Origin: Amphiscolops sp. MND2022
Taxonomy: Eukaryota
Assembly (NCBI GenBank): GCA_964187785.1
Contig: OZ076409.1
Span: 41,418,001 to 41,482,000, forward strand
Length of the DNA: 64,000 bases
Direction: 5' to 3'
The notes beneath the pieces were generated by a model. That model did no database searches. It was given only the letters and a program-made list of their open reading frames with translations, and was not told the DNA's origin. Shown here piece after piece: positions 7,401 to 63,357 of this stretch (the stretch's first letter is position 1; every line of letters starts with the position of its first letter). The position numbers and the translations under genes were made by a program.

Positions 7401-7710
7401 CCCACCCTCCCTCGAAATTTCAAAAAATAGTGGGGGAGCCCCGGTAGAAGAAACTACTGTTTCTAATGAAGAAACCCTAACCGAAAATGCAAGAAATGAA
7501 ATTGATGCGATTGATAGTCAACAAAATCTACAACCTAACCCTACTATTGATGCAGAACAATCCCCAGAAAATACAAATGAAAATCAAGTAACGACATTAT
7601 CAGAAGATAATGAGGAGGTTCAAAAAAACCTCTATCAATACACGTGGTAAAAAATACAATTTACGACCTAACCAAAATCCCAACTTCTCAGACTCATACA
7701 GATACTTTAG
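4403..7710 (+). pseudogene. pol: pol of element A (RT, partial RNase H, integrase; protease region and part of RNase H deleted)
   Basis: LLVEFH..ARHKFDIG, YVDD at ~5073, KCHFG, HPGI, LNCPEWDLGPED, ITD...ERTH, C-terminal YNLRP. Many stops and frameshifts. Relative to B it jumps from the gag stop to the RT start near 4430. Confidence 0.92.
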
Positions 7711-7863
7711 AAAACAAAAATAATCAAAATTCAACTCTCTAAATCTTCCTTCTTTTTATTCCTTGTGGAAATGAAAAACAGAATAAATACAACAAGGTAT
7801 AAATAGAAATACAAATAAAATTGAAACAACCAACCATGTGGGTAATTTTGGGGGGGAAGTTAT

Positions 7864-10800
7864 TCAATAAAGAACACTAGCTTTTCTCTTTTTCTTCGAG
7901 ATGGTTTTCACTGTAACCTCAGGAATAACAGGTGCTTCGGTTAATCGTCGGACGACTGGACTCATTGTGGGGGTTGAATCAGCTAATCCTAGTACACGTT
8001 TCACAGGAGTACCCTCGGTACTCGAACTATGTACAGCGGTTGGGCTAGTTGTTTCATCCATCACAATTCAAGACTTCTCTTTGATCCCTTCACTTTTGGC
8101 GTAATACCCCTTGAGTGAAGACAATAATGCAGTTTTAAGAAAGTGAGTCGAGGACATGATATTCCAAACAGAGAATTTCCTCTTGAGAATTAATCCAGGG
8201 CCTCGGTCAACCAGTTCAAACGCTCGTGGCAATGCAGCGAAATCCATAAATAGGCTCTCACACTTCTGAATTGATGACAGAGAGCACTGAAGACTCCTGA
8301 CACAGGAAGCAAATTCAAAATTGCTGGACTTCAACCCGGGGATTGACAAGGCAAACGACACGGGAACGGGGCAAGGTCCTCGTAAAGCTTGGCAGCATGT
8401 CTTGAAAAAGTGAAACAATTCAATCCGGCATTGGAGTTCATGATGACAGGAAAAAGTTCCAAGCCTGTCTTTAACTGTAGGGAAATTCTCACTACGAAGT
8501 TCGGTGATGAGTGAACAATATTCACTCACTAAAACGGGTTTCGTATGTGGGGCCATCCATTTCTGCTGAACAAAATACCCCGCAAGGTTCTGGATAGCGT
8601 CAGTGTAATCTGCCTCTCGTCCACTACGAACCACTGGTTCATAAAATGCGGAGAGCCCTCGCACGAAAGCAGATGTGGCCACTTTCGTCAGCAACAAATT
8701 GATAAAATGTTTGTAGAATGCAAAAAATTGGCCTACAAATTGTCGGGGAGTAGAAATCTTGGTCTTAGAAAGCAAATTAGAAAGGTCATGATCTTGAAGC
8801 ATGTCAAGAACAGTCTTGAAAGGCAGGGTAAAATCGTCCATGTTGAGGCTCATATTCTTGTCCCAGTCAGATATTGCCCCGAGAAAGGGACCCGGTAAGA
8901 TCTTTTGCAGCTGGGTGTATACAAAGACGCAATACTGATTGTAGAGCCGAAATCCGCCTGAGGTCGAACCAAAGACTTCACTGATGTCGAGTTGTTTAGA
9001 ACAAGAAAATAGTATTGGTTTTCAAAAAGCCATAGTAATAATATGGAGACAGTACGAAGAAAAGAAGAAACAACAATCAAGAAACAGAAAGGAACCGAAG
9101 AAACAGGATGTTGGGAAATTACTTACACACTGGCTAAGGATGTTTTTTGTAACAAACAAACGAGCAATGAAGACCTTGTCGCGCAATAACAAATCGTCCA
9201 TTCCAGAAGGCTGAAACAATTATTACAGGCAGAAAAATTACAGATACCCGTACAGTCAATGGACAAAGAACAACGCGAAACTGTTATAATACAATTGAAA
9301 TTGAATATGGAGTACAAACTTCTTGCATATGGGACCGGTATGTGGGATTCTTCTACTGCACTTCAAATGTTGTAGCACGTTGTCCCAGTTCGTGATCAAG
9401 TGGCCCATTACTTCAACAGCATGAGGCATATCGTAACCCAGATCAGTCACAGTCCAAAGTACAACAAACAAAGTGAATCAATGAAGAAACAGAGTTACAA
9501 GAGCACGTGCAATAAAAACAAAGATGTGAAAGAGCATGGAAAGAAGTCAATATGATGACTAATTATTCACGTGCAAAAATATGGAAACACTAGAATAGTA
9601 GTTCATGACTAATCATATTGCACAATGAGTCAAAATGTCGAGAAAAATAAATAAATTACCCAAATTTGCTGCATTATACCGCAAACCTTCACCAGTATAA
9701 AGAGAAGAAAGTGTCCATCTGAGATACGAAAAAGATGAAAACGCTGTAAATACAACGTATAAGGTCTCTGTTGAAAGAAAAAATCACTACAATCCCGAAA
9801 TCCCCTAGAATTCGTAAAATTTGTCTCCAATCGGGTAAGAAATATAAAACCCGGAAAAGTGGCCTGATAATGTTAAAATGGATCAAACAAAATATCATCA
9901 AAGTACCTTGATTAATCGAAAAAAAAATTAAAACAGTTGTGGGAGAAATAAAGAAACAATACTAACCTGTTTTGAAAATCTGGAAGTGATGACATCCAGG
10001 GGCTGTCACAAGCGGATTGAAGCCGCATTAGGAGGAAGTCGAGAAGGCTCCTGAAGTCAAATCGATCCCGGATGTGCACCGAAGGGACTAACAGTGTACG
10101 TTCCAGATCATCAGCGTCGATTTTAGGGAATGAACACACTCTCTTGCGCTGTGGTAACACTCGCGTCACGGTCTAAGTGATCCTGGGATCGAAGCCTGTG
10201 AGAAAGAGCAGGTGGGCATCTTTCTCAACTAGTGCGAAGAAGCCACTTAACAGGGAACGAAGAGAGCTGGGGGAGCATAATCTCCCTGGAAATACTCCGA
10301 TGCACAGTCCATACAGCGAGTTGTCTGCCCAGAAGTGCACAAAAAGTTGAGTTTCATCGCCATATTCTGTAATTCTGAGGGAGTAGCTTCCAGATCTCTC
10401 GATTGATATTATGCAGAATGACAACAACTCCCGGAACATGTAGGTTGAAAGTCCCTGAAGAAGAGGGAGACAAGTAATGAACCACGCAAGATGGACCTTA
10501 AACAACTCCCGTGATCAATAGCATGCAAATACTTACAAAGACTCGATGAAGCCGCCAGTCGTGCTGAATATTAGGCTCGGTCGTCTTCGTCTCCTTGACC
10601 AAATCATGCCAGAGTGCAATCATTGTTTCGAGCTGACCCCCCCCGTATGAGCCCAATCTTGAGCAAGTTCAATTGGGACAGCATGTCTTTACTGGGATCA
10701 TCAACTCCCCTGACCTCGGCTTGATCTTGCTGACCTATTCGTGAATAGTAGTCCCCAAGATTTGGTGCAACAGGATACTCCCGCTTTGTGCAGTCCTTGT

Positions 10801-12231
10801 CTTACTTTAGGGCCATCCCACTGAGTTCTTTGCGCTCTCTATCGATGAGGGGAAGCCCTGGAGTCTCCATCCTTATTCTGTGCTCCTTAACGAGGTGGCC
10901 ATCAGTACGATAATGGTGTAGTATCTCTATTGGACCTTTTGTCATCAGAGGACAGTTCCACTAAGCAGACCCGACATCTGTACTTGTGTGAGTACCTGGA
11001 TGCATCGGCAGGGGCAGTCGCGAAGAATTTTAAGATAGGGTATTTGTGATACATCCAACCTGCTAACACGTATCGTGGCTTGGCTCTTTTATAAGTGGCC
11101 ATGGTGGCTGGGGGCTGCTTCTTGCGTTTTGAAGTTTTGAGGTCTGGCGATTCCATTTCTTCAGCTGAAGAGAGACCTGATGAGGATTCAGAGTCAAAAC
11201 TAGAATCTGAGTCAGAAGAGCTTGTTTTCACCCTTGGCATCAGTCCCTTTAGTGGAAGCCTTGGTCTTCAGTGCCTTGCTGATTGCTTGTGGAGACTTCT
11301 TTTTGTTTGGGCTAGTTAAACCACTCAGTCCCACACTGTTGGTTACTCGAGAGAGGACGTTATCGCCCGCTTCCTCTGCAGCTTCCGTCAATATGCGCTC
11401 GAGTCTTGCTCGATGTCTCCGGGGCTAGTGGCGACGATGGGTGGTGATTCCGAGACGCTGGTTTTCTTCTTTTTCAAGGTAGGAGATGTGAATGAGTTGT
11501 CCCCCTGAACTGGAAAATTGGTCAAAAACTTCGTAAAAGGAGAGACTCTTTTACTAGCAGCAGTTGGTAGAGGAAATTTCTGAATTAAAGATTGGACTTG
11601 GTCTGAACGTGGTGAACAGGGAACGGCAGTACAAAAGAAGTACTTGATAAGAGACCCCCCACTGCGGCGTTGACAAGGGAGCTTACCTCTTGTTGAGCCC
11701 AATCGCCTGTGGTTGGAGTTTTTCCTGATTCAACAGTTTTATCATTTTCCACTGGGTCGACAAATTCGTTGAAATTGCCCAATATGAGGACTTGTGGAAA
11801 TAACTCTGGCGGGACATCATTTTCGTTTATCTGCGACTTTCGAGAACAATCACTTAATAGCAAAGATCGCTGGGTTACTGGGGCTTTATTGGCTTTGGGA
11901 GGATTAACAGCATTGCGTTTCAATTTAGCTGGGGAAGAATCTGAAACAAAATTCCTGAATTGCACTGATGTCGATAACAGAAAACAGTAACAGGAAACTA
12001 GTATTTCCGCTTGAAACTTGGGAACTGGAAAATGACAAATCGATAGATAGTCGACACTAAATGTGAGTTTGGCCAACTTGCATTTAAAATCTGTCAATCA
12101 GAAAAATCAACCAAATTCAAGCTTACCGCATGATGTAGCAGTTTTGGACGTCCTGCAATCAGCTGATCCTGATGACCTCTTTTTGGGGGGAGAGGCTTTC
12201 GCCGCGAGGAAGAAATCCGAGACCGAACCAT
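7864..12231 (-). pseudogene. Antisense multi-exon accessory gene of element A (BED-type Zn finger, hAT-transposase-like), decayed
   Basis: KFF...KYRCRVCLVELS plus frameshifted EILHHYRTDGH at ~10880-11040. Fragments 10173-10505, 9912-10169, 9256-9471, 9022-9219 and 8068-8853 are homologous to B exons. Intron 10536-10455, donor at 9966, acceptor at 9211. Confidence 0.8.
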
Positions 12232-13317
12232 CTCCAGGATAAGAAAGATCGTTGGAAGCAAATGAATGTTATTATGACGAAGAATTAAATATTCTGTCTA
12301 ATTAGAGTATCGAAATTTAAAGAAGTATCTATATTGGAACTAGCTAGAAAGTACGAAAATGAGCAAAACTGGAAATTTAAAAGTTTGGAAAGAGAGAGAA
12401 TTGACGAAATGACATAGATACTGACCACAACTGATACCATAAACAACCACACGATGCGACGTGGCTTACGGCTGAACATATTACTTTAACATATTTGCGC
12501 AAATACTGTGCGCTGATTGGTTGAAATAATTGGAACCGTTCTAACCTGCCAGGGAGATCGGTATTTAATAAAGCATAACTGAGTTCATTCACATATGCAT
12601 GCTGCGCCGCCGCCTAGTGTCAGTTCAAAGAAATGTGCAAAGTGAAACGTATCTTGCAGCACAACGTGAACTGGTATTGACCTAAAGGGAAAAAACATCT
12701 CATGACCTTATGCATCGCTACACTATTATGCAGATGACAGTGTATCATATAGTAGACATCATGATGCTGAAAAAAAAACAGAAGGGGTGAAAGTTGAAGG
12801 TAAAGGAGTATAAACTCAATCTTTCAAGAATCCCTATACCGTTTAAAGTACGTATTTGTACGGAACCTTTGTTTTCATAAACTCTTCCTTTCTGAATACC
12901 TTTAATTATTTGAATCAGAACTACATATTGAATCAAATTTCAAAAAATTTGCAAAACTCAAATAATAAAAGTTGAGTTGTCAAAATTCGTTATGCAAATT
13001 TTCATTCATATTTGTTTACAATCAAAATGTTATGCCTTTGTCATCTTAAATGGAAAGTTCACACATTTATTCACCAAATATGGGAATTGTGAAGACAAAT
13101 TTCATTCTGTTGTGGAGCTATTTGAATAAATTTGAAACATAATCTAACGCTTACCGCAAAATTACCGGGAAACGGGTAAACAAGAGAGGAAGATGACTCG
13201 ACAAGATATCTACCGTTTTCGGAAAACCCTGGAGCACAATCAAAGTGCGATGAAAAACAGAAGGAATTCATTCAAACAAAATTTTCTGAGGAAACTAGTT
13301 AAAACTTTGGAACCCAA

Positions 13318-14444
13318 ATGGGCAATAAAGCACCCAGAAGCTCTCACCGCTTTACTATCGACGAGGACATGCAGTCCATCTCTACAAACTCTGCCGGATT
13401 GATAAACATATCCAGTGACTCTGGGGAAGAATTTGTGACTGAACAACCCTGCTCGGAGCCTATAGATCAGAGATTCAGAGTTGGGGGGCCACTTAATAAC
13501 CCCATGACAGCCTTTGTCAACGAAGACGCCGCTAGATTGATCGCAATAAGCGAATCTAAAAAAAAAGAGAAGACTCCGCGATAGATATCACCGGCACTGA
13601 TATTGAAAAAGAAAGCCTTTGCAAGATCTTGGAACATACTGATTTACCTAATATCTCACCAGTTTCGTTCTTCGAATTGAGTGGAAGCGACAGTGGAGAT
13701 ATACTACTGAACGCTAATTTTGTTATTGTCCCGAGAAACAACTACGGTAGACCAGTGCTGACAGTTCCGCCCGTGCAAGCTGAAAGAATAACCAGGCAAA
13801 TACCTACCTGACTTGATGCTAATGTCAATAATCCTCCTAGTAACGTCCAAGTAAATGGACCAATCAGGCCTATACCTATTGCACCCTTGGTGATACCGCA
13901 TGAGATCCCTCAATCAAACTATGCTCATCCGTACAACAGGAAAGGAATACTGCAGACACCCAGGGCAGACCAGTACAATGTGCCGGGTGCTCAATTGAAT
14001 TTACCAAACTTAGTCACCCAAGTTATGGGACAATACCCATATGACATAAACACCGGGATTAAAAAGCAAACGCACATCCTAATCTCGCATATTACTATAA
14101 CGCCAACGGCCAGTAACCCAAGGCACCCATAGCAATTTAGAGGTGACTGGCGGAGGCGCTGTCCGAAGTGACAACGCTGCAGAGCAACAAAAGATCCCCT
14201 TATGAAGACAGCTTAGCCCTCCAGTTATGCAACATGTTCAGGGGAATTGTCACTGGTGCGGTAGAACCTACGATGAAGTTGCCTTGGATGCAATATCGGC
14301 CTACGCGGCAGCAACTGAATACCCGACGAGAAAATAAGAGACAGGAACATTAGATCGCGGGCTTACTTAGATGGGTTCAAAGCAGCACCCATTTGCAACG
14401 AAAATGCTGGCCTGACACAGCCTAAGTTTGTGTCGGGACCGTAG
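13318..14444 (+). pseudogene. ORF3 of element A (SIM-like motif, CxxCG), decayed, ends inside the 3' LTR
   Basis: LINISSDSGEE near the N terminus. At ~14245-14444: GNCHWCGRTYDEVALDAISAY, then (frameshift) RSRAYLDGFKAA...AGLTQPK, homologous to B ORF3. Confidence 0.7.
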
Positions 14445-15848
14445 TGCAGCAATGATGGCAAATGTCTCCCCACCTACAGCAAACTAGGGAAAACTCATCA
14501 CTCCTTTTGTATGAAATTATGTACAACTTTTGGATATCAGCATTGTTGGAATTTTTTACCATTACAGTTAATAATAGTTGCTAGGTAATAGTTGCTAGGT
14601 AATGTAAAATACAAGTGATTGATATATTTCTTACGTAATACCACTTTACATGAAATTCCATGAATTGAATAAATTATTCATGACTCGTAGGGCGCATTAA
14701 CACGTACGGACTTCGGTATTTGGATTAATCTGCTGTACTAAGTTTGAAGTATACTACAGTACAATCTCGCATTTTCAACATTTTAATTACGTCATTTAGA
14801 AGTATGACTCATCACGTCGACTTAATCATATGTGCTGTAATGTGTTGGAGTTAATACTTGTACTAGAAATGAGTCATACTACTTGTTGCTATAGTGATGA
14901 CCAATCAAAAAGCAGGAAAATATTCGTCATGCAGGAATCTATTTATAGCAGTGATGTAACATGCAAACCTATTTTTATATTACATTGGGTGCTAGTTTTA
15001 GTCATTACATAAGTATGATGTAACCATGACATTCCGAAAAATTGGTTGTCATAATACTAAAATTAGCCCAAATAAAATGGAGAGTTGAAAGACCATAAAA
15101 ATAATTCATTCAACAAAAAAACTTTCAGACCGATCGGACCTTCTTTTCATTTTCTCAATCTTCTTTCTAACCTCGATAATCTAGCATTATGTACATTTTC
15201 TTCGACTTTTTTTCAACTCTGTTGTACTTTACTTATCATTCTGATTGAAATTCTTCTCTCCAAAACAATATTTTAACCTGACTAATATGGGAAAAAAAGA
15301 AACAGAAGATCTAGACGAGCACAATCACCCTCACTTAAGAGAGTTGAATACGTCTGAAATAGAAACATCACAATGAAATGAAACTGTTATTGAAACTTTG
15401 AGTAATTTGATAAATGTTAGTTCAGTTAGGGACGAAGAAGCAGTTTTAGACAGTGGAACACAGAATTAAAATCAAATGCAAAATTGGACTCAAAGAATAT
15501 CTGATAAGACGAATAAAGAAGTAGCAAACGTAAGGAAAGAAATGAATGAGAAGCTAGAGAAAATGCTGAAAGACATGAAAAATAGCAGAAGAACACAATC
15601 CGTACCAAGCAGGAGATATCATGGGCGAAACACACTCCGAGTAGGAACCTCAAAAAACATAGATAACGAAGATGATGAAAAAAACGCATCTGAGCCAGAA
15701 AATCAAGAAAGCGAAATACAGGATAATTCTTTCAGGCCATCTAATATGAATAAACTTAGAACGCCAATGCAACCTTTGATTAAACAAAACATCGATTTAA
15801 ATGACTCTGTGGTCATATATGAGGACCGCACAGGAGAGGATTATCACA
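14413..15848 (+). repeat. 3' LTR of element A
   Basis: Starts tgacacag, ends gattatcaca, followed by TSD aagga. Confidence 0.93.
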
Positions 15849-19117: not shown

Positions 19118-20497
19118 TGTGATAATCCTCTTCCTCAGAGTCCTCATTGGAGGTTATAGTTTCGTCTAAATTTATCCGATTCCGAATTAATGACTTTGCA
19201 GGTTGCCTTAAAATTTTCATTTTCGATGCTTTTAGAGGATAATCTTATTTTCAGAATTAGTGTTTTCATTTTCCGATGCGTGAACTCTTATAGACTGATC
19301 ATTTTTGACCTCGAAAGTTGCATATTTTGTGTTCTAAATATTTCAGACCTAAGGTTTGTCATTATGGAAACGCCTTCATTCGATCTTACTTCCTTCAGAA
19401 ATGCATCAAGTTCGTTTACGTCATTGTTCTTTTGTTCAAGGATTTGTGTCCATGATTGAATTTCATTACAAATTTGGCTAGGTTCAGCCAACTGAGCACC
19501 CAAATTATTTTCACCTAAACTTTCTTGATCGCCAACATTTACATTAATCGAAATTATATTACCTTGATTTGGCGTTTCTACTGCTGTACCAATTGTGTCT
19601 CTTTCCTGAGAAGGGCTATCAAACCTTCTGGATCTCCTGTTTCCCATATTGCTAAAGCAAAAAAGTGTGATTTTTGTTGGGAAAAATTGAGTTTCCTCGA
19701 GGAAGTATGTTATGTTAAAGTTTGGGTTGTGAACAAAAATAAAGAAAAGGTTTACGGAATGATTGAGATTCTTAGTGCTCTTCAGGGAAGGTTTCATTCA
19801 AGTGGACCCCCCACAAACTGCGCTGATGATTGTACGAATAAAAAACATGACATCCTTTTATACAAGTATCATCATTCAAAACGATATAAATAGGATTACA
19901 TCAAGATGTCTTCATTTATTTTATATCCTGCAAAATCATGTTGCCTGATTTCCAAATTACAGTTATAAGGTTCGAAGACTCCCTGGGCAAACGTATACTG
20001 CCGTATAAACGTCACTCTGAGATGTGTCTGTAGTGACGTATGATCATTTAGGATCAAAATATAAAGTATTGCACTGTTGTCTCGTACAGTAACCTTTAGT
20101 GACGTAGAATCATTCGAACACGAAGCGTATAATATCGCATAAAACGTATGATAACACATAACCGGCAATTATCATTGCGCAAGATGCCGCATACTCGTCA
20201 GTAGTCAATTCGTACGATTATGTATAATTTACAGAATTTCCACATTTTAGCAACAAATTAGCTCTCACAAACTGCGTGAACAAGTATTATGAGTCATTTT
20301 AGAATGAGATGATGAATGAAATTTACGCTTCAAGTACGTCAAATGTAAAACAAAGTAAAACGAACCCAGTTTGAAATCAATTTAACATTTATAAAATTAT
20401 ATGACAAAAGTAAGAAGCTAAGAGGGGATATTCTTCTGGGAATCGGGTTTGGCAGTCACTTGTTTTCTTGAGAATTGCCAACTATGGGGTTGTGACA
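19118..20497 (-). mobile_element. Solo LTR (1380 bp) of a family related to element A, carrying a gag N-terminal ORF remnant
   Basis: On the minus strand it starts tgtcaca and ends gaggattatcaca like the A LTRs. Flanks gttga (19113-19117) and gttgg (20498-20502) form a near-perfect TSD. ORF MGNRRSRR...NEIQSWTQ resembles A gag (RRSR...NEMQNGTQ). Confidence 0.85.
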
Positions 20498-47290: not shown

Positions 47291-47619
47291 GCGTACACCT
47301 GCATCCAAACAACTCTCTCAATTTTCTTTTTGACAACTCAAAAAAAATCGCAAAAAACATTTCGTTTCATTTTTTTGAACCGTACTCAACTCGATCTAAA
47401 TATTAATCGTAATGACTTAACCAATACTCCCTCTGTTGAAAAAGTGCTTAATTCTTTCTTGACGAAAAACAGCAACAAAATTTTCATTTTCCAAAAACAT
47501 AAATTCACCTCACATTCCTCTTCACTCTTCATGCCCAGTACTCCTCAAATCATCTTTACATTATCGCTATTATCCAAAATTATGATCCTCCAAAGCAATA
47601 TTACATCCACACTCCTTAC

Positions 47620-49251
47620 TGTCGCAGGCTCCCGCCTGCGATGGGAACTTTTACACCATCAATTACAGCTGTTTTCGCGCCCTCCCAGGTACTCTACCAA
47701 TAAACTAGAGGAAAGGACCATGTGTCCCATTGTCATGACGGGACAAAAACTTCAAACTGAATTTGTAATATTTTTACGGCATGTCTATTATTCTATTTTC
47801 AGTTTTGACAGCCTTATATATAAAATCTTGTGCAAATTATTAATCGGAAATACCATTTGGTTAGTTGAAAACTACGAAGTTGATTTTGATACATTGATGC
47901 ATGTAAACACTGTATGTTTAATGTATTAGCTAAGAAATTGGACACCAAGGCGTACAGGAAAGGAAACGAGTTCAAATGTTTCCTCTCCTGTCTCGCTGGA
48001 CACGCAGTCCGTCCAAATTCTTAGCCAATCAGAACACGCCATTCATTTCATTCACTGTGCGCAGTATTCTAAATTAAAGGACTCTAAGGCCACGCGCCGT
48101 CAGCTAGTAGTAATTTGCTGCCTATTTACGGCAAACGGACACTGAGTCCAAATTAAAGTAAAGTGCAATTTACAGTGGTAAATAAAGGCTATGATTGGTG
48201 TTTCTAATAAATACTCGTTTTGATGAAGATTACTGGACCATTTGTACCATTTGATGCTAGATATTAATAATTTACATGAATACTCAGATTAATGAGTTGG
48301 TACATGTAAGTTATGGTTGATCAAATGTAATTGCATGTAATGTTGCTTAACCTCACATATGAAAGGCCTTGAGGGATGCTTGGACCTACAATCCTTCTAT
48401 ATATGGAATTGTTGAAGGCGCTTGAATAAATCACCCCTTTGAAGTGACCCTTTCGTCATGCCGCCTTCATGGCTATAAATAGTAGGTGCTATTTTTAGAT
48501 AGCTGTGAAGGCTATTTTTAGAACGTGACCCTCATTATTTTGCAAGTCATGTAAACCTGAGTATATATACCGTGGACCCTAGGTCCCAAGGACTTTTTTC
48601 AATTTCCTTGATACCGTAATACTCAAACTTGTTAAAATCGTTTCAACATACTCTGTTTGCAAGCCTGAGAACTTAATTTAAATTCTTACCTCTTGCAATA
48701 AACTCTTATGCCTTCCACAAGAAGACAGAAAGCGAAAGCTAGAAAATCCAAAGAGATGGACATGTTGTCCGATATGGATAATTTAGACGTGATGATAGGG
48801 AGTGAAAATCCTTTAGAAAGAGAGTTAGCAGATGTAATAGACCAATCTTCCATTAATGGTGACATAGAAATTGGTAGTCACTCAAGAAATGATCTTGGAA
48901 ATTTCATTCAAGGAAATGAGCCTCATGGTCGAAACGACATAAGACAATCCTTTGAAACCTTTTCAAATGAATTTAATCTTAGGTTATCTCAAGAGATGGA
49001 TTCCATGATGGCCATGGTACATAGTCAGATAAATAGAGCAATCAGTACCGCCATATCAGAGAAGGTGTTACCGGAGATTCAGAATATTGTGAGTTCAATG
49101 TCTTCCTCTGGGAACAGGGACACTGAGATGAGTATGTCTCCTAGTAGTCAGGAAAATAGGGAAAATCCATCTGGCTTGAAAACAAAATTATTGAAAAAGG
49201 ATTCACGGTCCGTTGGTGATTTGAGAGACACCACGGGACGTGGCTCTTACA
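47620..49251 (+). repeat. 5' LTR of element B
   Basis: tgtcgcagg...ctcttaca. Candidate TATA box tataaa at 48474. Contains the gag ATG at 48708. Confidence 0.97.
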
Positions 49252-49265
49252 TGGTGACAGGAGCT
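49252..49265 (+). promoter_or_regulatory. Primer-binding site TGGTGACAGGAGCT
   Basis: Immediately follows the LTR CA and is identical to the element A PBS. Confidence 0.85.
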
Positions 49266-50380
49266 AACGAAGCCCAGCAGCCTATACCTGAATTTCTCAC
49301 TGGACGAATCCACTCAATCCCGAACCTAGAGAGACAGCAATCTAACCACAATTTCTCTTTGGACACCACTCTGCCAGCGCCAGAACCAGAGGTCACAGAG
49401 CCACCTCAGGACCCGCTCAATAGATTGGCTGATGTACTAGTCAATTTGCAAAACAAACCCCAAACGATGACTATCCGGCCTGTCCAAACAACCCCTATGA
49501 CGTTTGACGGAAAGAGTGAGAAATTCGAACTCTTTGAAGATTTGTTCCACACAATGATCAAAATGCAACCGGCCATGACAGAGCAAATGAAAATTAACCA
49601 TTTCCATTCACTGCTCAGGAAAGGAGCCTTGCAGACCTTCAGGAACATAAACTCAATCAACCGCCAAACACTCGAGGACGTGCTGATCATATTCCGGAGA
49701 AAATATGTCAAACCGGAATCCCAAGCAACGGCAAAACACAAATGGCATCGGCTGACTTTCGATCCGAATACCATGAAACTGCCGGATTTCTTAGAAGAAC
49801 TGAACCAGGGGGCAGAAAAAGCTTTCGGTGAGAATGCAAAAAGCATGATTGACAGCTTATTGTATGCAAAACTGCCTCCAAAATTAAAACGATCTGTCAA
49901 TATGGCCCGCCTGGAGAACGGGACATAAGAGGAAATCGTCGCTCATCTTGAAAGAGAGCTTGAACTCAACGCATTAGAAGAGTCAGACGATTTGCCAATC
50001 GCCACAATGGCCTCTGCGTCCACCAGTAACAACAATCTGCTCTCTAATGGCATAAATACTAATAAGGACGCACAATGCTCTTATTGTAAAGCCACAGGCC
50101 ACTTTTATAAGAGCTGCCCCAAATTGAAAAAGAAGAAAGAATTGGAGGACAAAAATGGCAAAAAGCCCCAACGTCCCACATACCCAGAATGTCCTACTTG
50201 CGGAAAGAAAAATCACCCCGTTGAAAGATGCTGGAAAGGGGCTGGAGCACATCTACGTCCCAAAAGGACAAGACCCGAAGATAAAGCCGATGAAAACTCC
50301 GGCGATGAAAAGTTGTCTAAAAAATCAACTAACCCCGAAACTGCATCTTCGAGCCAATCAAACCCACGAAAAACGGACTC

Positions 50381-50387
50381 AAAAAAC
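50381..50387 (+). promoter_or_regulatory. -1 ribosomal frameshift slippery site A AAA AAC
   Basis: X XXY YYZ heptamer in the gag frame just before TAA. The -1 frame is open from 50387 into pol. Confidence 0.8.
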
Positions 50388-53300
50388 TAATTTCGCCACG
50401 ACTCCAAATATGTAACAAGATGTCAGTACGACAGTACGTCATATCTGACCCTGCAAACATTACATATAAACAAACTCAAAACGACACCACAGGGATGCCA
50501 TCGACTGTCTGGCAGCAGCAGATGGCCGACGCCCGCAGAGAAACTCAATATATCATCCACAGTGATCATCCATACTTATATCGACGGAACAGTAACCGCA
50601 ACGACTTGGAAACTCACTTTCGCCCTTTAAAAACTGTCGAAGATTATAACCCTCAATACTATGACCCCGAGTATGGCAAAGACCCATACTGGGACGACGA
50701 ACTATATGACAAAACAAATTTACAATTTCGAAACGAAGATTACCCTCCAACTGACGACGAGGATGACCCAGACATCGAAGACAACACACTGTCTCGGGCC
50801 CTCATTGATCTTTGGCAGCCGAACTTTGAGGCAAATATACAAGAAGTAGACGCCATACACACACAGGAGGACCATAAGGCTCCTAATAGTCTGTTAGATG
50901 AGACAGCCTTCTTACACCTCCTAGTGACCAAAGAAGGAGAATTACCATACGTTCCCCTTTCAACAAACCTTGGACTTAAATTCAAACGACGAATGCTCTA
51001 TTTCCCAATGGACTTTGGGGAATTAACTCTAGATGGCCTGATAGATACTGGAGCCCACTCCAGTGCAATCCCGGAGGCAGACCTCAGGAAAATACGCCTG
51101 TTGGCCCCTCAATCCATTGTAAAAGAAGGTCCCGCCCCATCCTTCCAAATAATGGTCGCAAATGGAGACTTAGAAACCCCAAAAAGCACAGTCGAACTAA
51201 AATTCGAAGTGGGCGACATAGAATTTCACGAAATTTTCATTGTAATGGAAAAACTGTCAAGCCCCATAATTGGACTAATATTCCTTCAAAGGAACCACAC
51301 TGTCCTGGACATGCGCCAAGGTATACTCAACTTTCCCTACTTCTCGATGCAACTCAAGACGGCTGACCATAAATACTCAAATGTTTTGGAACCCATCCTC
51401 AATCCTGAGGATGTCACAATTCCGCCCAATGACCATGTGGTCATACCCATTCAATCACAAATTTACGCAGAAAATGCAGTTACGGGCATATTGCAACCTA
51501 GCGATCTTCTGCACGAGGAAGGCGACATAACCTTCTGTGCCGCCATAGTCACACTACATGAAGGGGCTACGAGAATACACGTCAACAATTTCACTGATCA
51601 ACCCTACAAAATAAAGAAAGGGATGCACATTGCAAACTTTTCAGTGATGACCCCTGAACAGATGAAACACGTCAGGCCAATAGACCCAGTGTCCACCTGG
51701 CACTTACTGAATGAAAATGAAGACGACGCTATTTATTATATTAGTAGCCTTCTTAAAGCTAACAGAAATAATGACCAATACGAACAATATTGGTTCCCGA
51801 CGCCTGAAAACCCAGGGGACGAAACGACCCACACCCCAATACAACAAAGAATTCTCAAAGAATTACAAGATCTGCAAAGTTTAGAACAACTCAACCCGCA
51901 CGACGATGCGGAATCTCGTCGAAAATTCCTCAGTAATTTTGATTGGAAGGATTCAATGTTACAACAACATGGAATCAGACAAATAGAAACTCTATTAGTG
52001 GAATTCCATGACATCTTTGCGCGCCATAGATTTGACATTGGTGTCAATGAGGAATTTACGGTCAAACTGACCCCAAAAGACGAATCACCTGCCTACAGTC
52101 AGAGCCTACCTACACCAGTCAACCTCAAAGAGGACATATTGGTCGAACTGGCGTTACTTCATAAATATGGTATTATAACGACATTACCATTCTCAAAGTA
52201 TGCCAGTCCCATCTTCGCGCAGAAAAAGCCCAATGGGAAATTGAGACTGTTGGTTGATTTGAGGAAAATAAATAATCTCATCTCAGACGATTATATCAAC
52301 AACAATCACCCAGTCAGTACCCTGACGGATGCGGCGCAACATATGGCAAGCAAAAAGCTCTTTTGCAAACTTGACTGTTCTCAAGCTTATCATTGCCTTC
52401 CTATGGCAGACCAGAAGTCGATTGAAATGCTAGCATTTAACTTCGCCAGCAGGACATTTGCATATAGAAGATTAGCCCAAGGACTCAGTAGAGCCCTGTC
52501 GGCCTTCTCCAGTTTCATGAGGGAATACTTGGATCGTGTCATAAAAGCAGACCAATGTGCTCAATATGTGGACGATATTGGTGTTGCGGCGACAGACGCC
52601 GACCAGCTTATCGTCAACTTAAGAGCAACTTTCCAATGTATCAGAGAAGCAGGATTGAAATTGTCCATGCACAAGTGCCATTTCGGCGCTACTGAAATTG
52701 ACTTTCTTGGGAGAACCATTACACCTGAAGGCGTAAAACCCCAAAAAGAAAGAATCACTAACTTCTTGGAAAAGACGAAATTCCCAAAGTCCAAGAAGGC
52801 CTTACAACGCTACCTTGGTTTCCTCAATTACTACAGGAATTATATTCCAAGGCTATCCGAAAAACTAGTTCCCTTCTTCCAATTGCTCAAAAAGGATGAA
52901 AATGTACTAGTTACGCAAGAGCTAGTTGAACAATTTAATGAGATCAACCGCGATTTAGACCGATGTAGTCAATTGGCGTTGAAACAACCTCTGCCGAACA
53001 AACAACTGCTCCTTATGACTGACGCGAGTTTTACAGCAGCCGGTTACGCCATATTAACCGAAGACGACCCAAATCAAAAATACACTTCTGTTAAAAAGTC
53101 CTATGCGCCGATTGCATATGGATCCAAGACTTTCACGCCTTCTCAGCTCAAAATGTCGATATATGCAAAGGAATTCCTAGCTATATATTATGCATTTAAG
53201 GAGTTTGGACATATCTTCTGGGGAACACCTCAACCCGTGATTATCCTCACAGATAACAAATCGGTCACAAGGTTCTTCCAAACAAAGATAATTCCACCGC

Positions 53301-55494
53301 CTCTCTGGAATGCTTGTGATTTTGTCATTCAATTCAACTTCATTATAGCTCATATTCCAGGCAAAAACAATACAGCGGCAGACTACTTGTCCCGTATGGA
53401 AATGGACCCTAGTGAAAAGTTAGTCCTGAAAATACGTGAAGACGTCGAGACCCGACCGATTGAGGTCAATGTTCAATCAGCGGGAGTATCTGAAGAAGAA
53501 CAAGTCTTCTTTACCGACACAGACGACGAAACAGAGCAACAGATTTGGGAACGGAAACAACAATCCAAAAGGGGCCTCATAGTCCCTGAGGCAGTAATCC
53601 AAATTGACGCTATATCAGAAAATACCGTCGAAGAGATTACTAACTTCACACAGAAATTAAGAAGAACAAATCAGATACTGCTTGAACAATCCAAAGACCC
53701 GATTCTCCTCCAATTGAGGGCGAAACTGCAAAATGAAGAATATTCTGAAGAAATCCTTCAACGGGATATTCGGTACAAGTATTACTTGAACAACATAGAC
53801 AGAATAGTCCTCAAAGACGAAATAGTGACGAGACAGTACTATGATGAAACCGGACAAGTCAAATATCATCAAATCTTATTGCCAAAGCATTTACTCAAAG
53901 AATTATTACAAGCAATACATGGCACAGCACATCGACACCCGGGCATTTCTAAAATGCTACAGGAAATTCGTCAAAAGTATTACTACCCAGGAATAGCAAA
54001 ACACGTCAAAAAATGGGTAGAAGGCTGCGAAACATGTGCTAAGGACAAAAGGGTCCCCAACACAGTTTTCACCCCAGAATTACTGAATTTACCTGAATGG
54101 GACCTAGGCCCAGAAGATGCCATGCAAATTGATTTATTGCCAAATTTACCAACTAGCGGCGGATACCAAACGGTGATGACGGCAATAGATGTATTTTCAA
54201 GATATTTATTCGCCTACCCGCTAATTGAGGCAACAGCCGCAAACGTAGCCAAGGTGATAATTGACATCATGACGAAACATTCGTATTTGCCAACAACACT
54301 CATCACGGACAAGGGATCTGCATTCACATCAAAAATTCTAGAAGAAATTACTGCAATACTGGGGATCACATTGAAGTGTGCCACTACTAAACATCCGCAA
54401 ACTATTGGTAAACTTGAAAGTACACATGCCTCTTTAAAAACCAACCTAAAGATAGCCTCAGGAGAATACCGTCGTCAATGGCACAAATATTTACCACTAG
54501 CTGTGCTTAACTATAACACTACTTATCACGCTAGTATTGGATTGGTTGTGAGCCTAGCAAAGTCTTTCATGGACGAATTCCCTACAACGTCTTGGATCAC
54601 AAATTAGGAAATAATCCTAACAAAAATTTCCTACCGACGACTGAATTCGCGGAAGAATTGCAGCAGAGGACGCAGATCCTCATTGATCAAACCAAAAAGA
54701 ATATTATGCAGTCGTATTTAAAGTACAAAGAGTACAACGACCGCAAGGCCAAAGCGGCTCCGCTACAAGAGAAAGACTACTGTTTCGTTCTCCAACCGAA
54801 GGCGGATAGCCAAGGATCTAAAATACCATTCAGGGACTTCCGATGGATTGGTCCTTTTGTTGTTCAAAAAACTCTACCAATTTACAATTATATAGTGCGT
54901 CGTTTAAATACGAATAAAACGCAAATCTTGCACCGGATCAGGCTCAAAAAATTTGTTCCAAATGCCCCATTAGAGGACAAATACGAAGAGAAGAAATTAC
55001 AGCCCGATGAAGAAATAGTAATACCACAAGATGATTTGTATACCATCTCATGGGAGGCGGACTTTGAGTACGAGCTATTCGAGCCGAAGACAAATGATTG
55101 GCCACACACGGCCACGCGTCTACTACAGGACGCCGCGAACGGAGAAATCGACTATTACGTCACCGAGAATGAAAGCAGCAGCGTAAACGAAAGTGAACGC
55201 AGCAGCGGGAGAATGAATGACGATGACGTCAACGAGAATGAAGTACGGCCACGATCGGCCAGCAGCCGTGACGCGTCGTCCCCTCCGAGCGAATCGCCTA
55301 GTAGGACGCAAAATGAAAATGACGTCACAAATGATTTAGAGAATACGGAAATTGCTTCAAAAGGAGGCGTAGATATTGCCGTGCCCGGAATATCGGAAAA
55401 TGGAAAAGATGAAGAAACTTCTAGCCCTAGAGGAGGGAAATATAATCTTCGACCTAACCCCACCCCCAACTTTACTGATGAATACAGATACTAG
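50387..55494 (+). CDS. pol: pol of element B (protease, dUTPase-like domain, RT, RNase H, integrase with GPY/F), frameshifted at 54536-54545
   Basis: LIDTGA; LRLLVDLR, LDCSQAYH, YVDD; LMTDAS, AKEFLA, LTDN; H..HPG...CETC, IDLL, ITDKG, KLES; RWIGPF; YNLRP. A duplicated attgg shifts the frame in the integrase C-terminal part. Confidence 0.97.
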
Positions 55495-55712: not shown

Positions 55713-58700
55713 TTAAGATTTAGAGGAGGATTGCGCAGCATTGCGTGACCCGGAGTCTTCTTTCACTGGCTCGGCATTCTCAAAGGCTACTTTGCACTTC
55801 ACTTTTCCAGGGGATTTCCTTCGCTTACTATGAGTAACTGGGGAAGTAGACCCAGAGGCAGAACGACTGGAAGATGGAGACTTCGACTTCTGCGTTAATG
55901 CCTTATGCTTTTGACAAAGAATCTTGTAAAAATCAGCTCGACCGAAGACATCAACGTGCGTCCAGGGATCTCCGGCCACATTCCCAGTATGAAACTCCTG
56001 CTCAATTTCTCGAAGTTTATTGAGAGAGTCATCCTTCGTGCAGACAGAAACGGCATCTGGTGCTCGAGCTAAGTAAGATTGGGCTGGCAGTAGAACGTCG
56101 GCTAACTTACATTAAGGCCTTTGGGCATCGACATCATGGAACCGAATGGGTGGGAGCAAAGGAGTGTTTTCAGTAAGGCACATACAGCTCAATTGGAAAA
56201 GGCGATAGAGGTGCACCCGGTTACGAAGTTCAGGCATCACTGACAGGAAGTCGACCATGTCAGAAAATCCATTTGGGGAATCTTTTAAAGCCTCATAACT
56301 TTGACGAAAATGCCCAACAAACTCCAAATATTCGTCACGGCAGTCGTTCTCAGATGACCCTTCCATCCAGCCTCGCAGACTGAAACTTTGATATAAGGCC
56401 GCAAAGCAGAAACTGGCTTGCTCTGTGGGAAGGCAAAGGAGGACATTCGGATCAAAGCTCGCCATTCCGACTACGAGATTGGAATTCAAGCTGACATGAC
56501 CCAGGAAGTTCTGAAGGAGGGTAACAAGATAACTCCTAGCCTTTGCGACAAACTTCTCCTTCACTGCTTCAACTTGTTCGGACAAATTAGGAATGGGCCC
56601 CTCTCGGTCGCTGTTGTCACGTCGTACCTTAGCTGTGCTAGCTGCGTCTAAATCTTGCTTCAATCGCAGTCTAGTGAGGAAATCTCTGGAGGATAGTTGG
56701 CGGAGCTCAGCAGTGCGAAGCACTGGTAATTGAGTCCAATCAGTTTCTTTAGGCGAATGTTTGGGCAACAAAGCCCGGTAACAGAGCTTTCTGACGAAGT
56801 TGTTTAGTTGCCCGAAAGTAAAGAAACCAGAGTCTCTGTGCCCAGCCAGACTTCGTTCAAAGCAAACGTTGTCTAAACAGTAATTTCAATAATGGAGTCG
56901 GAGCTGACAGAAACTTACCCCGAATAGGAACTTAGGGAATCCTTGGCCTTCAAAACAAAATGGACGAAACGGAGATACTTACAATCATATATGATCCGTC
57001 CATAGAATTCGAGCTTGACCAAGAAGAAGTCGTCACAAATGATCTGCCACTCCAGGCTTTGAGGCTAAAAGAACAAGCGTCCCTGACAACATCTGGTCTA
57101 ACCCCCCTACAAAAGTTGAGCAAAGCCCAAACCAAACACTGAAATACGTTCAGACCTTGTTTTTAACTCCGATCATCTCATAGCTGGGCGCAATTTGAGT
57201 AATGTGGTCCAGGAAGGCTGACCAGTTCTTGATAATCTCCGAACAAATAGTGGGGATAGATCGGAGGCGCAAATCATTACTGCTAATGGCCTAAAAACAA
57301 CTTCATGATGCAAGGACGAAATCACAACAACCCGGTAAATGAAAACGGGGTCTTACCTTAGAAAGCTCAGGCGCTGCGGCCATCCAAGGCTCATCAAGGC
57401 TCTGAGACAAATAGGCCAACAAGTATTTAAGCTGGGTGTGGAAGTTGATGCGTCCAAATACACTTCCTTCCCGCTTGTGCATGAGCCTGTGTATCGACGT
57501 GACTTGGTATCGAAAGGGGTACTCGATACTTTTCTTCATCAACCCCGACTGTTCCACAGTCCGGAGAACGTCAGAGGTACAACCAGACATACAAACTATC
57601 TGTGGGGCGGTGGACAGCAAGGACAAGAGTCGGGCTATAACAAGCAGCTGATTGCGATCTGGATCAGAAGCCAAACTATATTGCATCAATTGGAGCTTCA
57701 CGAGAAATCCCGACTTCCAGTAACGTAGTGAAGCTATCTCCATGCCTCCCTGTGGCTCAAATTCAATTGAATATTGTCCAAAATCGTTGACAGACTGGGC
57801 CACGTCCTCCATGCCACGCAAGAAAATGTGATGGAAGATAGCCTGAAATAGTTAATCCTACATGAGAATTCGCTAACCCAAGATCAAACAACAGAGCCCC
57901 CCTTCTCTTACCCTATACAAAAGATGAGAACGAATATAACACGTACCGTAAGCGTGATGGAGCTCCAATCCAGATCTCCGAACAACTCCTGGTGGTTGGT
58001 GAAATTGCCCACTTCGGACCAGAGCCCCTGCAGAAGGGTAATATCGCCCGAGTAAGGGACAAGTCGTCCAATCAGTGAAATTTGGGTCCAAGTCGGACAT
58101 CGTCGGGACTTGCTAAACCCCCAGCGCTTGCCATGTACTCGTCGTAGAAAGGGTAACGTGGGCCAATATCTACGAGTGGTGCAGTTTCAAACAAGGGCTT
58201 TTCCTTCTGGAGTTCGAAGGCAGTTAAGACGTGTCCGTCCTTCCCCCTGACAGCGTGAACAGTAGTGCCTGTGATCTTGTCGAGTTTGCCCAGGTGTTCA
58301 TATCGCCAGCGCTGATCCTTCCTCAAATGACTCTCATTTTGGTAATGGCGGACGATTTCACGTGCCCCTTTGGAGAAGATGGACACGTTGGTCTTACAAA
58401 TTTGACAATAAAATTTGTACTTGTTGTGCACGGGGTCAAGTGGGCCAGTAACAAACACTTTGGTCCATTGGATGCCTTTAAAATACGCGGGCTTCATCAC
58501 CTTCCCCGGTCGGCTCATTAACTTGCGTCTCTTCCGTGGGGGACTTCGATTACCTGGCTGATGAGAAACCTGAGGTCCAAGCGTGCTCAGAGGTTCGTAA
58601 TCGCCCTCGCTATATCCTGGACTGGGGATGACGGACTTCCCTAGGGTTACCTCGCGTTCCGCGGTACTTGTGCTGGGATGCATTCCAGCGATGGGCGTAT

Positions 58701-59723
58701 TAGGTCCAGAATCGGTTTCCAGACTAGTGACAGTTCCTCCTATCTCTTCATCAGTAGAGTAAGCCCCGCTAGTGTTGCCATCAGTAGTGTAGCCCTCTCC
58801 ATCTGACTCTCCTCCCGAGCTATTAGCCGTACTTGTGTCCGGGATACTCCCACGGATCAGAGCTTTCCGCAGCTGGCTGGCACTCTGTCCCTTCCCCCCG
58901 TGAATAGCTTGCAGAACTAGTGAGCGCATAGAGTGCAAAGATGACTTGACTGTTTCGTCAGAAATAGTCTTCAAAACAGCATGAATCTGTGGCTCACTAA
59001 ATGCCACCGTTGTGTGCCCCCTGGGGAGCTCAATGGGTGTATTTTGAGTGAAATACTTGCGGAGCATAAGCCTCCCGTTGGCAGACAATTCTGTAGGGAG
59101 TGTAGGTTCTTTGTGACCGGTTGTTGTCAGAGGCCTACTTAAACTTTCTGATGTAATTTTTTGAGCTTCGCTTGGGTCAGCAAGAAGTTCGGGCCCCACA
59201 ATGCTAGAGGTGGGCCTATCGGTCAATCCGTCCTCCCCTGCACTGTCAAGGATGTCCTCTATTTCACTGGCGGAAGTTTCAAAGTAATTTCGTTGGGGTT
59301 CTTCAGGCAAATCAAAAGCATTTGAATCAAACAACCGTGAGGATCCTTCCCTTCGGCATCGGCCCTTCTGGTTTTAGGTTGTTTGGCAATAACGGCCTCA
59401 GATTCAGAAGCTTTATCCATGCTAGGTCCTGAACATTTTTGTGGGGAGCCATCGTGAACAGTTGCCAAGAACGTTATATCCAGGCTAGGATCAAGGCTGG
59501 CCATAGTTCGCAAAGTTTGGCTTGCGAAAGTAGTCATACTCTCTTCAGTGTTTCCACTACTTGAGGAAAAGTTAGAAGGTGGTCGAACATCAAGGTGTAA
59601 TCCCGCGCTGTCTCCTTCGGCTAATTGGCGCTGCTCGCTGGGCGGTTGATCCATCAGGCTTTGAGTGGTTACGGCAGGGGAAGTAGTTTGGGTCTCCTGT
59701 GTTCCAACAGGATGTTCAGACAT
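55713..59723 (-). CDS. Antisense five-exon accessory gene of element B (~1,200 aa; BED-type Zn finger plus hAT-transposase-like body; lesioned copy)
   Basis: Exons 59723-57947, 57842-57357, 57290-57156, 57064-56983 and 56872-55713, joined by GT-AG introns of 104, 66, 91 and 110 nt with compatible phases (0,0,0,1). Motif W..VF...FYCQICK...IVRHYQNESH. Lesions: frameshifts near 59340 and 58087, TAA at 56112-56114. Confidence 0.85.
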
Positions 59724-60436
59724 CGTGTCTAAACAAAAAGAAATAAAATCAAGCGGGAACCTTCCTGAATATGAGTCCATTACCGCGCTAAAAATCTTCC
59801 GGAAGTAGATTGATATGAACACAAGTGAATGCTTGAGTTACTGGACAGGAAGTATGTGAACGAAATGAGAGTCTTGATCAAACCTCAAATTAGTTCAAAT
59901 TTTCTCAAGAAAATTAAACGAAACCTAGAACCTACTGACCTGTTAAATTGTGACTGCTGGAAGGATCGTGAATTGGATCTGCCATGGGACTCGATGGAGC
60001 ACGTCAAGGGATAATTTCTTCAAGGTGGCAAACTGGAGCTAGTTGAGAGTGGTTGGAGGGAGCCTGAAGGTCGACTGTCCGTTGATACCCGGAGAATCTA
60101 TGGGGATGTGGATGAATGGACACTGAGTCCTGGGATGAAGACGAGAAGTAATTAAATGAAAAATACAATAAAATGACTCAAAGACTAAAGGACTGACTAA
60201 GTACTGATGATTAAATACTGGATAATACGAGAAGTGGATAATACAATTGAATGGTAAAGAATTGGAAGAAGAATTAGAAATGTGACAAGATGTCAAGATT
60301 GGAGTTCGTGGCTATACAGTTTGGTGTCCAACTTACAAGTATTTACGATTTATGGAGATATGTGGATAAAGTCTGCCAGCGATATCTACCTTTTCCATTA
60401 ATTTCGAAAACTTTGTTATTTACAAAATTATTCCAT

Positions 60437-60974: not shown

Positions 60975-61814
60975 ATGAATAGCCTTGTCTCGCCTTTGTA
61001 TGACTCCGAACCCGAAAGGACCTATCCGGAGGACTTCCAAGGAGCTGCCCCAGGAGATGGGATCATTTACATTTCAAGCGACGAAGAGGAGACAATGGAA
61101 TGCAGGAGCGTTTCCTCGATAACCGATTTCTTGTCCTCCTCGGAGGATGAGTCGGAAGAAGTTGCTCAGATGGCCTTATGCGTCGAAACACAGATGTCCG
61201 AGCCCATAGCAATTCCCTACACCTCTTCTTCTGCCGCGAATCAGGCAAACGAACACAGAAGGCCAAACTTGCCTCCGTTTCCTAAGTTCGACCAGACTTA
61301 CTTTAGCCTGGGGAGAGGCAATGGGCCCCTAAGGGCAGACAGTAGAATTAAGCGGAACCACCCGATAAACTTGTGCCGCAATCTTGTCCCGATGGTCGAT
61401 ACGCCACTATCCCCACCAGATGCAGACAGAGGACAATACTGCCCTCAACCGACATCGAGTGGGTCTTACGTATCAGATGCCCCGACGATTGATTCTATGG
61501 CCAATCATTTTAATGACTTGGAGATCGGGGTGTCTACAGCTGAATCGACCTATTCGGACTGTGTGATCTGTGGTAAATCAACACATCAAATACGCGAGGA
61601 AGCTGCAGATGATTACATCAGCTAGACGGTCGCAGTGGGAGAAACGCTAGCGGAGACGCAAGCAAGAAAGAGAGCAATTCTAGACGGGATGACAGCCGGA
61701 ACTTTTCTTCTCATGCCAGGGGGAGTGTCGCAGGCTCCCGCCTGCGATGGGAACTTTTACACCATCAATTACAGCTGTTTTCGCGCCCTCCCAGGTACTC
61801 TACCAATAAACTAG
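60975..61814 (+). CDS. ORF3 of element B (unknown function; internal TAG at 61623-61625; reads through the PPT into the 3' LTR)
   Basis: The 216-aa ORF continues in frame after TAG as TVAVGETLAETQARKRAILDGMTAGTFLLMPGGVSQAPACDG...PIN*, homologous to A ORF3. Confidence 0.75.
61718..61725 (+). promoter_or_regulatory. Polypurine tract AGGGGGAG
   Basis: Directly precedes the TG of the 3' LTR. Confidence 0.8.
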
Positions 61815-63357
61815 AGGAAAGGACCATGTGTCCCATTGTCATGACGGGACAAAAACTTCAAACTGAATTTGTAATATTTTTACGGCATGTCTATTATTCT
61901 ATTTTCAGTTTTGACAGCCTTATATATAAAATCTTGTGCAAATTATTAATCGGAAATACCATTTGGTTAGTTGAAAACTACGAAGTTGATTTTGATACAT
62001 TGATGCATGTAAACACTGTATGTTTAATGTATTAGCTAAGAAATTGGACACCAAGGCGTACAGGAAAGGAAACGAGTTCAAATGTTTCCTCTCCTGTCTC
62101 GCTGGACACGCAGTCCGTCCAAATTCTTAGCCAATCAGAACACGCCATTCATTTCATTCACTGTGCGCAGTATTCTAAATTAAAGGACTCTAAGGCCACG
62201 CGCCGTCAGCTAGTAGTAATTTGCTGCCTATTTACGGCAAACGGACACTGAGTCCAAATTAAAGTAAAGTGCAATTTACAGTGGTAAATAAAGGCTATGA
62301 TTGGTGTTTCTAATAAATACTCGTTTTGATGAAGATTACTGGACCATTTGTACCATTTGATGCTAGATATTAATAATTTACATGAATACTCAGATTAATG
62401 AGTTGGTACATGTAAGTTATGGTTGATCAAATGTAATTGCATGTAATGTTGCTTAACCTCACATATGAAAGGCCTTGAGGGATGCTTGGACCTACAATCC
62501 TTCTATATATGGAATTGTTGAAGGCGCTTGAATAAATCACCCCTTTGAAGTGACCCTTTCGTCATGCCGCCTTCATGGCTATAAATAGTAGGTGCTATTT
62601 TTAGATAGCTGTGAAGGCTATTTTTAGAACGTGACCCTCATTATTTTGCAAGTCATGTAAACCTGAGTATATATACCGTGGACCCTAGGTCCCAAGGACT
62701 TTTTTCAATTTCCTTGATACCGTAATACTCAAACTTGTTAAAATCGTTTCAACATACTCTGTTTGCAAGCCTGAGAACTTAATTTAAATTCTTACCTCTT
62801 GCAATAAACTCTTATGCCTTCCACAAGAAGACAGAAAGCGAAAGCTAGAAAATCCAAAGAGATGGACATGTTGTCCGATATGGATAATTTAGACGTGATG
62901 ATAGGGAGTGAAAATCCTTTAGAAAGAGAGTTAGCAGATGTAATAGACCAATCTTCCATTAATGGTGACATAGAAATTGGTAGTCACTCAAGAAATGATC
63001 TTGGAAATTTCATTCAAGGAAATGAGCCTCATGGTCGAAACGACATAAGACAATCCTTTGAAACCTTTTCAAATGAATTTAATCTTAGGTTATCTCAAGA
63101 GATGGATTCCATGATGGCCATGGTACATAGTCAGATAAATAGAGCAATCAGTACCGCCATATCAGAGAAGGTGTTACCGGAGATTCAGAATATTGTGAGT
63201 TCAATGTCTTCCTCTGGGAACAGGGACACTGAGATGAGTATGTCTCCTAGTAGTCAGGAAAATAGGGAAAATCCATCTGGCTTGAAAACAAAATTATTGA
63301 AAAAGGATTCACGGTCCGTTGGTGATTTGAGAGACACCACGGGACGTGGCTCTTACA
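61726..63357 (+). repeat. 3' LTR of element B
   Basis: Same length (1632 bp) as the 5' LTR at constant offset 14106, with no difference seen by eye. Confidence 0.97.

Follow-up and report, generated by a model that had tools for sequence, protein, structure and literature searches.

A Ty3/gypsy retrotransposon in which a long N-terminal domain of Gag is probably encoded within the LTR

Results

A young gypsy element with LTRs of 1,632 nt

The window, by which we mean the whole 64-kb stretch of DNA that was analysed, contains a young 15.7-kb Ty3/gypsy retrotransposon, here called element B, recognised by self-comparison of the window through a pair of 1,632-nt LTRs that are 100% identical. The insertion is bracketed by the 5-bp TSD CTTAC (47615-47619 and 63358-63362). 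Its features are as follows (in peptide and nucleotide motifs a slash marks the LTR end).

47620..49251, + strand: 5′ LTR, 1,632 nt, TG...CA, identical to the 3′ LTR
48474..48479, + strand: TATAAA, candidate promoter (motif only)
48697..48702, + strand: AATAAA, candidate poly(A) signal just 5′ of the gag ATG; the active copy would be 62803-62808
48708..49250, + strand: putative LTR-encoded N-terminal extension of Gag, 181 codons
49248..49266, + strand: att end (ACA) and PBS, read in frame as Y/MVTGA; 15 nt common to elements A and B
49251..50390, + strand: internal gag, capsid and two zinc knuckles
50333..55494, + strand: pol (protease, dUTPase, RT, RNase H, integrase), in the -1 frame relative to gag
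55713..59837, − strand: antisense accessory ORF(s), broken, between pol and ORF3; BED-like zinc finger, a lead only (Atlas 0.88)
60975..61814, + strand: ORF3 frame; in relatives it continues through PPT and att to an end 29 codons into U3
61726..63357, + strand: 3′ LTR, with a second copy of the 181-codon ORF (ATG 62814)

Judged from its enzymes, element B is a gypsy element: Pfam matches give the pol domain order protease-RT-RNase H-integrase, and the closest solved relative is Ty3 Gag-Pol (E 5e-38). A dUTPase domain sits between protease and RT (50333-54607; E 7e-5). Gag relatives return weak Pfam matches to Retrotrans_gag, Ty3_capsid, zf-CCHC and DUF1759, the last standing near its cut-off.

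Two other assignments were considered and set aside. In copia-type (Pseudoviridae) pol the integrase precedes RT; in element B it does not lie upstream of RT, which rules out Ty1/copia membership. Pao-type pol domains include Peptidase_A17, and BEL/Pao (Belpaoviridae) was rejected on finding no Peptidase_A17-like, Pao-type Pfam match in pol.

This copy of element B carries a stop codon at 49926-49928, within the capsid region of gag, and a break in the pol frame near 54535-54607. An A-run at the gag-pol overlap (window 50365-50400) is a candidate -1 frameshift site, and a short purine run precedes the start of the 3′ LTR at 61726, the position of the PPT. Pfam returned no env match in ORF3 or in the antisense ORFs, and the structural model of ORF3 was uninformative in this respect. 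The antisense ORF(s) may represent a DNA-transposase-like gene that the clade has captured; a weak homologue is present in element A at 9975-10463 (−) (17.7%, E 3e-4).

The gag frame extends across the LTR end

The original prediction placed the start of gag at an ATG inside the LTR, with about 181 LTR-encoded codons, and had the frame running on through the LTR end as Y-M-V-T-G-A. Both statements hold for the reading frame of element B, with LTR boundaries drawn from self-comparison and the TSD. The gag-frame ATG at 48708 sits 544 nt from the end of the 5′ LTR, 181 codons are LTR-encoded, and the frame passes the att end and the PBS without a shift. At the junction a further ATG is formed, the first base of which is the final base of the LTR.

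The gag frame of the LTR contains no stops, whereas the two remaining forward frames have 17 and 19, and codon periodicity is detected within the ORF (P 0.008 in B, 0.007 in the 3′ LTR of element A) and is absent upstream of it (P 0.72 and 0.87). It might be supposed that the frame is not translated at all, being open by chance or through purine-rich composition, with any conservation due to DNA or RNA signals in U5. We regard this as extremely improbable. With this composition, chance would leave 181 codons open at a probability of ~1e-6, and RNA spanning the junction folds no better than its shuffles (z -0.86); comparisons between copies, given below, bear on the same question.

The PBS matches, at 11 of 12 nt, the 3′ end of a tRNA-Leu(CAA) published in the supplement of PMC13524379. 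Because of this match the primer is probably a tRNA-Leu. No tRNA genes were found within the 64-kb window, and Rfam gave no match anywhere in it.

An older family with the same junction

Two further insertions in the window carry LTRs of a related type.

1832..15848, + strand: element A, of an older related family; LTRs 1832-3290 and 14413-15848; TSD AAGGA
19118..20497, − strand: solo LTR; 5-bp TSD with one mismatch; decayed A-type ORF with EDYH at the LTR end

As predicted, the gag frame of element A spans the junction in the same way (EDYH/MVTGA), though its 188-codon LTR ORF has decayed and is broken in both LTRs. Between the two LTRs there are 82 substitutions and 12 indels. In these dead LTRs the frame has been lost after only 5.7% divergence, which argues against a frame held open by composition alone. 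A fourth A-type LTR ORF fragment, also decayed, lies at 127-467 (−).

The ORF of the solo LTR had been expected to be homologous to the others. It does resemble the A-type domain (34% identity, E 1.5e-10); against the element B ORF, tblastn gave no match. Nor could homology be detected between the A-type and B-type extensions themselves (profile probability 0.4%).

The codon-position bias foreseen for LTR alignments depends, within the window, on how the alignment is made. When the solo LTR is aligned with element A under protein guidance, which is a biased procedure, there is an excess of third-position changes (22/20/40). In a codon-blind DNA alignment the third position is not in excess (51/47/51 and 38/41/34), and the fragment at 127-467 is likewise flat. 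The codon-blind outcome fits an untranslated frame; perhaps it stems from the ~63% identity of these sequences being near noise.

Relatives share the start codon and the LTR end

When residues 1-200 of element B Gag were used as query, 438 proteins matched among 738 candidates; the counts that follow cover the best 120 of these 438. The peptide MPSTRR, or a one-letter variant, opens 115 of the 120, the junction Met stands at index 181-183 in 103, and 79 are 550-600 aa long. The database holds 560-aa Gags beginning at the same Met as the LTR ORF of element B. For the element A family, 32 matches were obtained among 144 candidates, some of them 556-aa Gags in which the junction follows 188 residues. 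Related loci were not found in viral contigs (95 candidates); one related metagenome contig, L001 (1,162 nt), has 53% capsid identity and is without the 5′ part.

The relatives are ENA proteins, perhaps from very few assemblies. Database proteins are called ORFs, so copies with open frames are preselected, a circumstance on which the view of the frame as untranslated can draw.

The LTR-end peptide was located in 199 fetched proteins, of which 170 read through into sequence resembling MVTGA, leaving 29 that part from it there. All but one of the 29 have a next residue encoded by an A-initial codon (28 cases; background 0.42), which puts the LTR end of many further copies at one and the same codon; the exception is an in-frame insertion. 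The diverging proteins are, as expected, apparently 3′ or solo LTR copies running into their flanks: the tails of the 28 run-off ORFs are unrelated flanking sequence with no common stop, and in element B itself the ORF copy of the 3′ LTR (ATG 62814) reads on into the flank up to 63479.

In 177 of 180 cases MVTG is preceded by Y, H, D or N. This [YHDN]/MVTG signature is forced by an LTR ending in ACA followed by the PBS, and is therefore not an independent sign of selection on the protein. Outside the families of A, B and the solo LTR, the end of the LTR was placed from this peptide motif rather than from DNA. Some relatives (P0272, P0284, P0343 and P0411) contain tandem repeats of an H-MVTG-like motif around the junction, which suggests local, frame-keeping duplications of the att/PBS stretch.

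The LTR frame evolves as protein-coding sequence

Substitutions in residues 1-181 are more conservative than under a neutral codon model in 11 of 11 comparisons (z 1.8-3.5), all of them made against B and so not independent. Across 12 lineages at less than 90% identity, 71 of the 181 LTR-encoded sites are invariant. Conservation is organised in blocks (identity 0.39 to 0.95), and the LTR-encoded part changes faster than the capsid (70% vs 93-99%).

The extensions of divergent families can still be aligned, and keep their frame open, at 26-37% identity (149-189 aa, E 6e-6 to 9e-20). Had they drifted neutrally to this level, the probability of a stop-free frame would be below 1e-3, and ~38-51 frame-breaking indels would be expected in the LTR extensions, given the rate of 11 such indels per 82 substitutions taken from the two dead LTRs of element A. 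Both the conservative substitutions and the retention of frame and homology at such distances count against an untranslated frame. Where the original prediction had allowed that the LTR frame might show no coding constraint across copies, the frame proved to be constrained at the protein level across families. Since the LTR stretch is conserved in the manner of a protein, it is very likely translated.

A wider profile search of cluster representatives returned 2,472 matches. Among the 150 listed, 22 include the junction motif together with the start of the capsid; an in-frame stretch lies upstream in 14 of these, and the other 8 have the junction Met as their first residue. In a 23-row capsid tree, every main branch includes members with a basic-tipped upstream extension of 114-223 aa.

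The eight representatives raise the question of whether the capsid Gag starts instead at the junction ATG, built from the final A of the LTR and the TG of the PBS, with the LTR frame translated only sometimes or as a longer isoform. The junction ATG is invariant and has a G at +4. The same invariance is dictated by CA/TGG at the LTR end, so that no selection for initiation is required, and several of the junction-starting representatives sit on long branches or are neighbours of relatives with extensions. In every family that has it, moreover, the extension is in frame with the capsid. We think a junction start unlikely as the principal mode of expression.

ORF3 and the U3 end of the LTR

The prediction that ORF3 enters U3 is true of intact relatives and fails for this copy, in which ORF3 stops at 61623-61625, 100 nt short of U3. 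An ORF3 query gave 44 matches among 124 candidates. Intact relatives, among them 279-aa forms (66 members in the P0153 cluster), measure 272-285 aa. They run through the PPT and att and extend ~29 codons into U3. Among 16 aligned sequences the U3 tail is better conserved than the rest of the protein (62% vs 49% mean pairwise identity), and 2 of 18 aligned relatives depart from the frame near the junction. ORF3 had no Pfam match, and its fold model was too poor for a fold search (pLDDT 44).

Since the ORF3 of relatives runs into U3, both ends of the LTR are likely coding. Retroviral ORFs lying in U3 include HIV nef, MMTV sag and foamy bet, in genomes where gag begins after the PBS. Like ORF3, these are accessory ORFs that pass over the PPT into U3; the position of the gag start differs.

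Taken together, we consider it highly probable that element B is a Ty3/gypsy element whose Gag has a long LTR-encoded N-terminal domain, and in whose relatives the ORF3 frame enters the other LTR end.

Proposed expression of the LTR-encoded domain

Transcription would start ~25-30 nt past the TATAAA at 48474, near 48500. A single ATG-TAA mini-ORF (48549) is present in the leader of element B. Of the gag-frame ATGs, that at 48708 has a weak context and that at 48756 a strong one; counted from the TATA region, 19 ATGs come before the one at the junction. These contexts, and the number of ATGs upstream of the junction, mean that scanning would favour a start inside the LTR and weigh against one at the junction: ribosomes would scan ~200 nt past the mini-ORF and initiate at 48708, with partial leakage to 48756.

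A G-poor, pyrimidine-rich leader adjoins the LTR ATG in all three insertions (48560-48707 in B, 2580-2728 in A and 19648-19800 (−) in the solo LTR). Its last two bases in element A and in the solo LTR are AG, no more than 4 nt from the ATG, and there it resembles a splice or trans-splice acceptor. If such tracts did act as splice acceptors, alternative RNA forms would be possible, among them forms compatible with a junction start.

Past the TATA, the LTR has no canonical hexamer other than the AATAAA at 48697; none is visible at the equivalent place in the decayed element A and solo LTRs. In the 3′ LTR the hexamer would terminate transcripts so as to leave an R of ~225 nt and a U5 of ~525 nt, the latter almost wholly coding. 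U5 would be found in both LTRs because it is copied into minus-strand strong-stop DNA. The proposal that U5, att and PBS are dual-coding is supported as far as att and PBS are concerned, which lie within the gag frame; that the coding stretch is U5 rather than R is deduced from this one AATAAA.

A possible role for the domain

The LTR-encoded domain consists of a basic tip, a variable acidic linker and a Ser-rich linker, and a low-confidence model predicts a long helix at about residues 74-132. The Gag model as a whole is poor (mean pLDDT 40), too low for a fold search; a crude heptad count was weak, and Atlas gave no usable match for the domain. By analogy we tentatively suggest, at somewhat less than even chances, that the domain is a matrix-like assembly and targeting module. 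The basic tip might bind RNA or nuclear-import factors and the helix might self-associate, with the linkers disordered. Such a module would parallel the disordered N-terminal domain of Ty1 Gag, which the relevant passages of PMC10372613 describe as required for particle assembly.

Candidate promoter, ATG and whole domain are present in every LTR. One might take the LTR ORF to serve mainly as a stand-alone product of 3′ and solo LTRs, in the form of a truncated Gag by which the element restrains its own copying, with the fusion to Gag secondary. The 28 run-off ORFs in the database fit such a product, and a truncated-Gag restriction factor is reported for Ty1 (PMC4551931). The tails of these ORFs, being unrelated flank without a shared stop, do not; the frame is always phased to the capsid, and the AATAAA just upstream could cut such transcripts. 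This account seems to us very unlikely, and the reading of the LTR stretch as the head of Gag is preferred.

A further reading, which we offer as speculation and consider rather unlikely, is that the LTR is a portable gene head, with a promoter, a start codon and a Gag domain of 114-223 residues in every LTR of the clade. The 3′ and solo LTRs would then produce truncated Gag domains fused to downstream sequence, which could serve as copy-limiting decoys and as a steady supply of new host fusion proteins.

Comparison with known elements

The surprise attached in the original prediction to a gag start upstream of the PBS needs qualifying: the principle has a precedent in Ty1, whereas the scale and the two coding ends stand. 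Passages on Ty1 in PMC5454406 and PMC4974528 give an LTR of 334 bp, an RNA start at nt 241, a 5′ UTR of 53 nt and a PBS near 335-347. On these passages Ty1 shares with element B a gag start inside the 5′ LTR and a PBS within the GAG frame. Only ~13 LTR codons are involved in Ty1 (computed from the published coordinates), compared with 181-223 in this clade; Ty1 belongs to another superfamily, and no ORF3 entering U3 is described in the same passages (PMC5454406, PMC4974528).

The ICTV profile of the Metaviridae has gag internal and LTRs non-coding, with a U5 of 75-250 nt (PMC7879559). Canonical members share with element B the LTRs, PBS, PPT, a gag with capsid and nucleocapsid, and a PR-RT-RH-IN pol; element B departs from them in having ~630 of its 1,632 LTR nt in reading frames. 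Of 32 animal gypsy rows with LTR coordinates in a table of PMC13524379, 3 have an LTR that ends 4-19 nt beyond position 3000. Gag would start at that position if the table uses the offset of that paper's methods, an offset unconfirmed for the table. Planarian Burro and rotifer Vesta, Juno and TelKA resemble element B in having a dUTPase between PR and RT and accessory ORFs; an LTR-encoded Gag domain does not figure in the portions of PMC6431247 and PMC5408684 that describe them.

Our literature search, whose scope excluded most subscription journals and repeat-database reports, returned no report of an LTR-encoded Gag domain of 100-220 residues, and the sections retrieved from PMC3601003, PMC9911081, PMC4202319 and bioRxiv 10.1101/2022.12.06.519325 contain nothing on one. 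A gag start in the LTR is known from Ty1; what appears new is an entire domain that takes up one third of the LTR. The LTR gag start described here is ~14-fold larger in scale than that of Ty1, is clade-wide, and is accompanied by coding at the U3 end.

The working definition of the LTR as non-coding is broken here at large scale: conserved reading frames take up ~39% of the element B LTR (544 nt at one end and 89 nt at the opposite one), and att, PBS and PPT are themselves read in such frames. Annotation that seeks gag after the PBS would shorten each of these Gags by a third. In this clade a solo LTR is more than an inert promoter, since it bears a protein domain. Element B further provides a natural setting in which to study the evolution of integration and priming signals that are constrained by coding.

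Other sequences in the window

Three tandem copies of a 2,355-nt unit (97.5% identity, no Rfam match) occupy 23424-30492. Two intronless ORFs, 21615-22886 (+) of 423 aa and 17565-18218 (+) of 217 aa, had no Pfam match. A fragment of copia-type pol, with Pol_BBD and gag_pre-integrase matches, lies at 35753-36427 (−).
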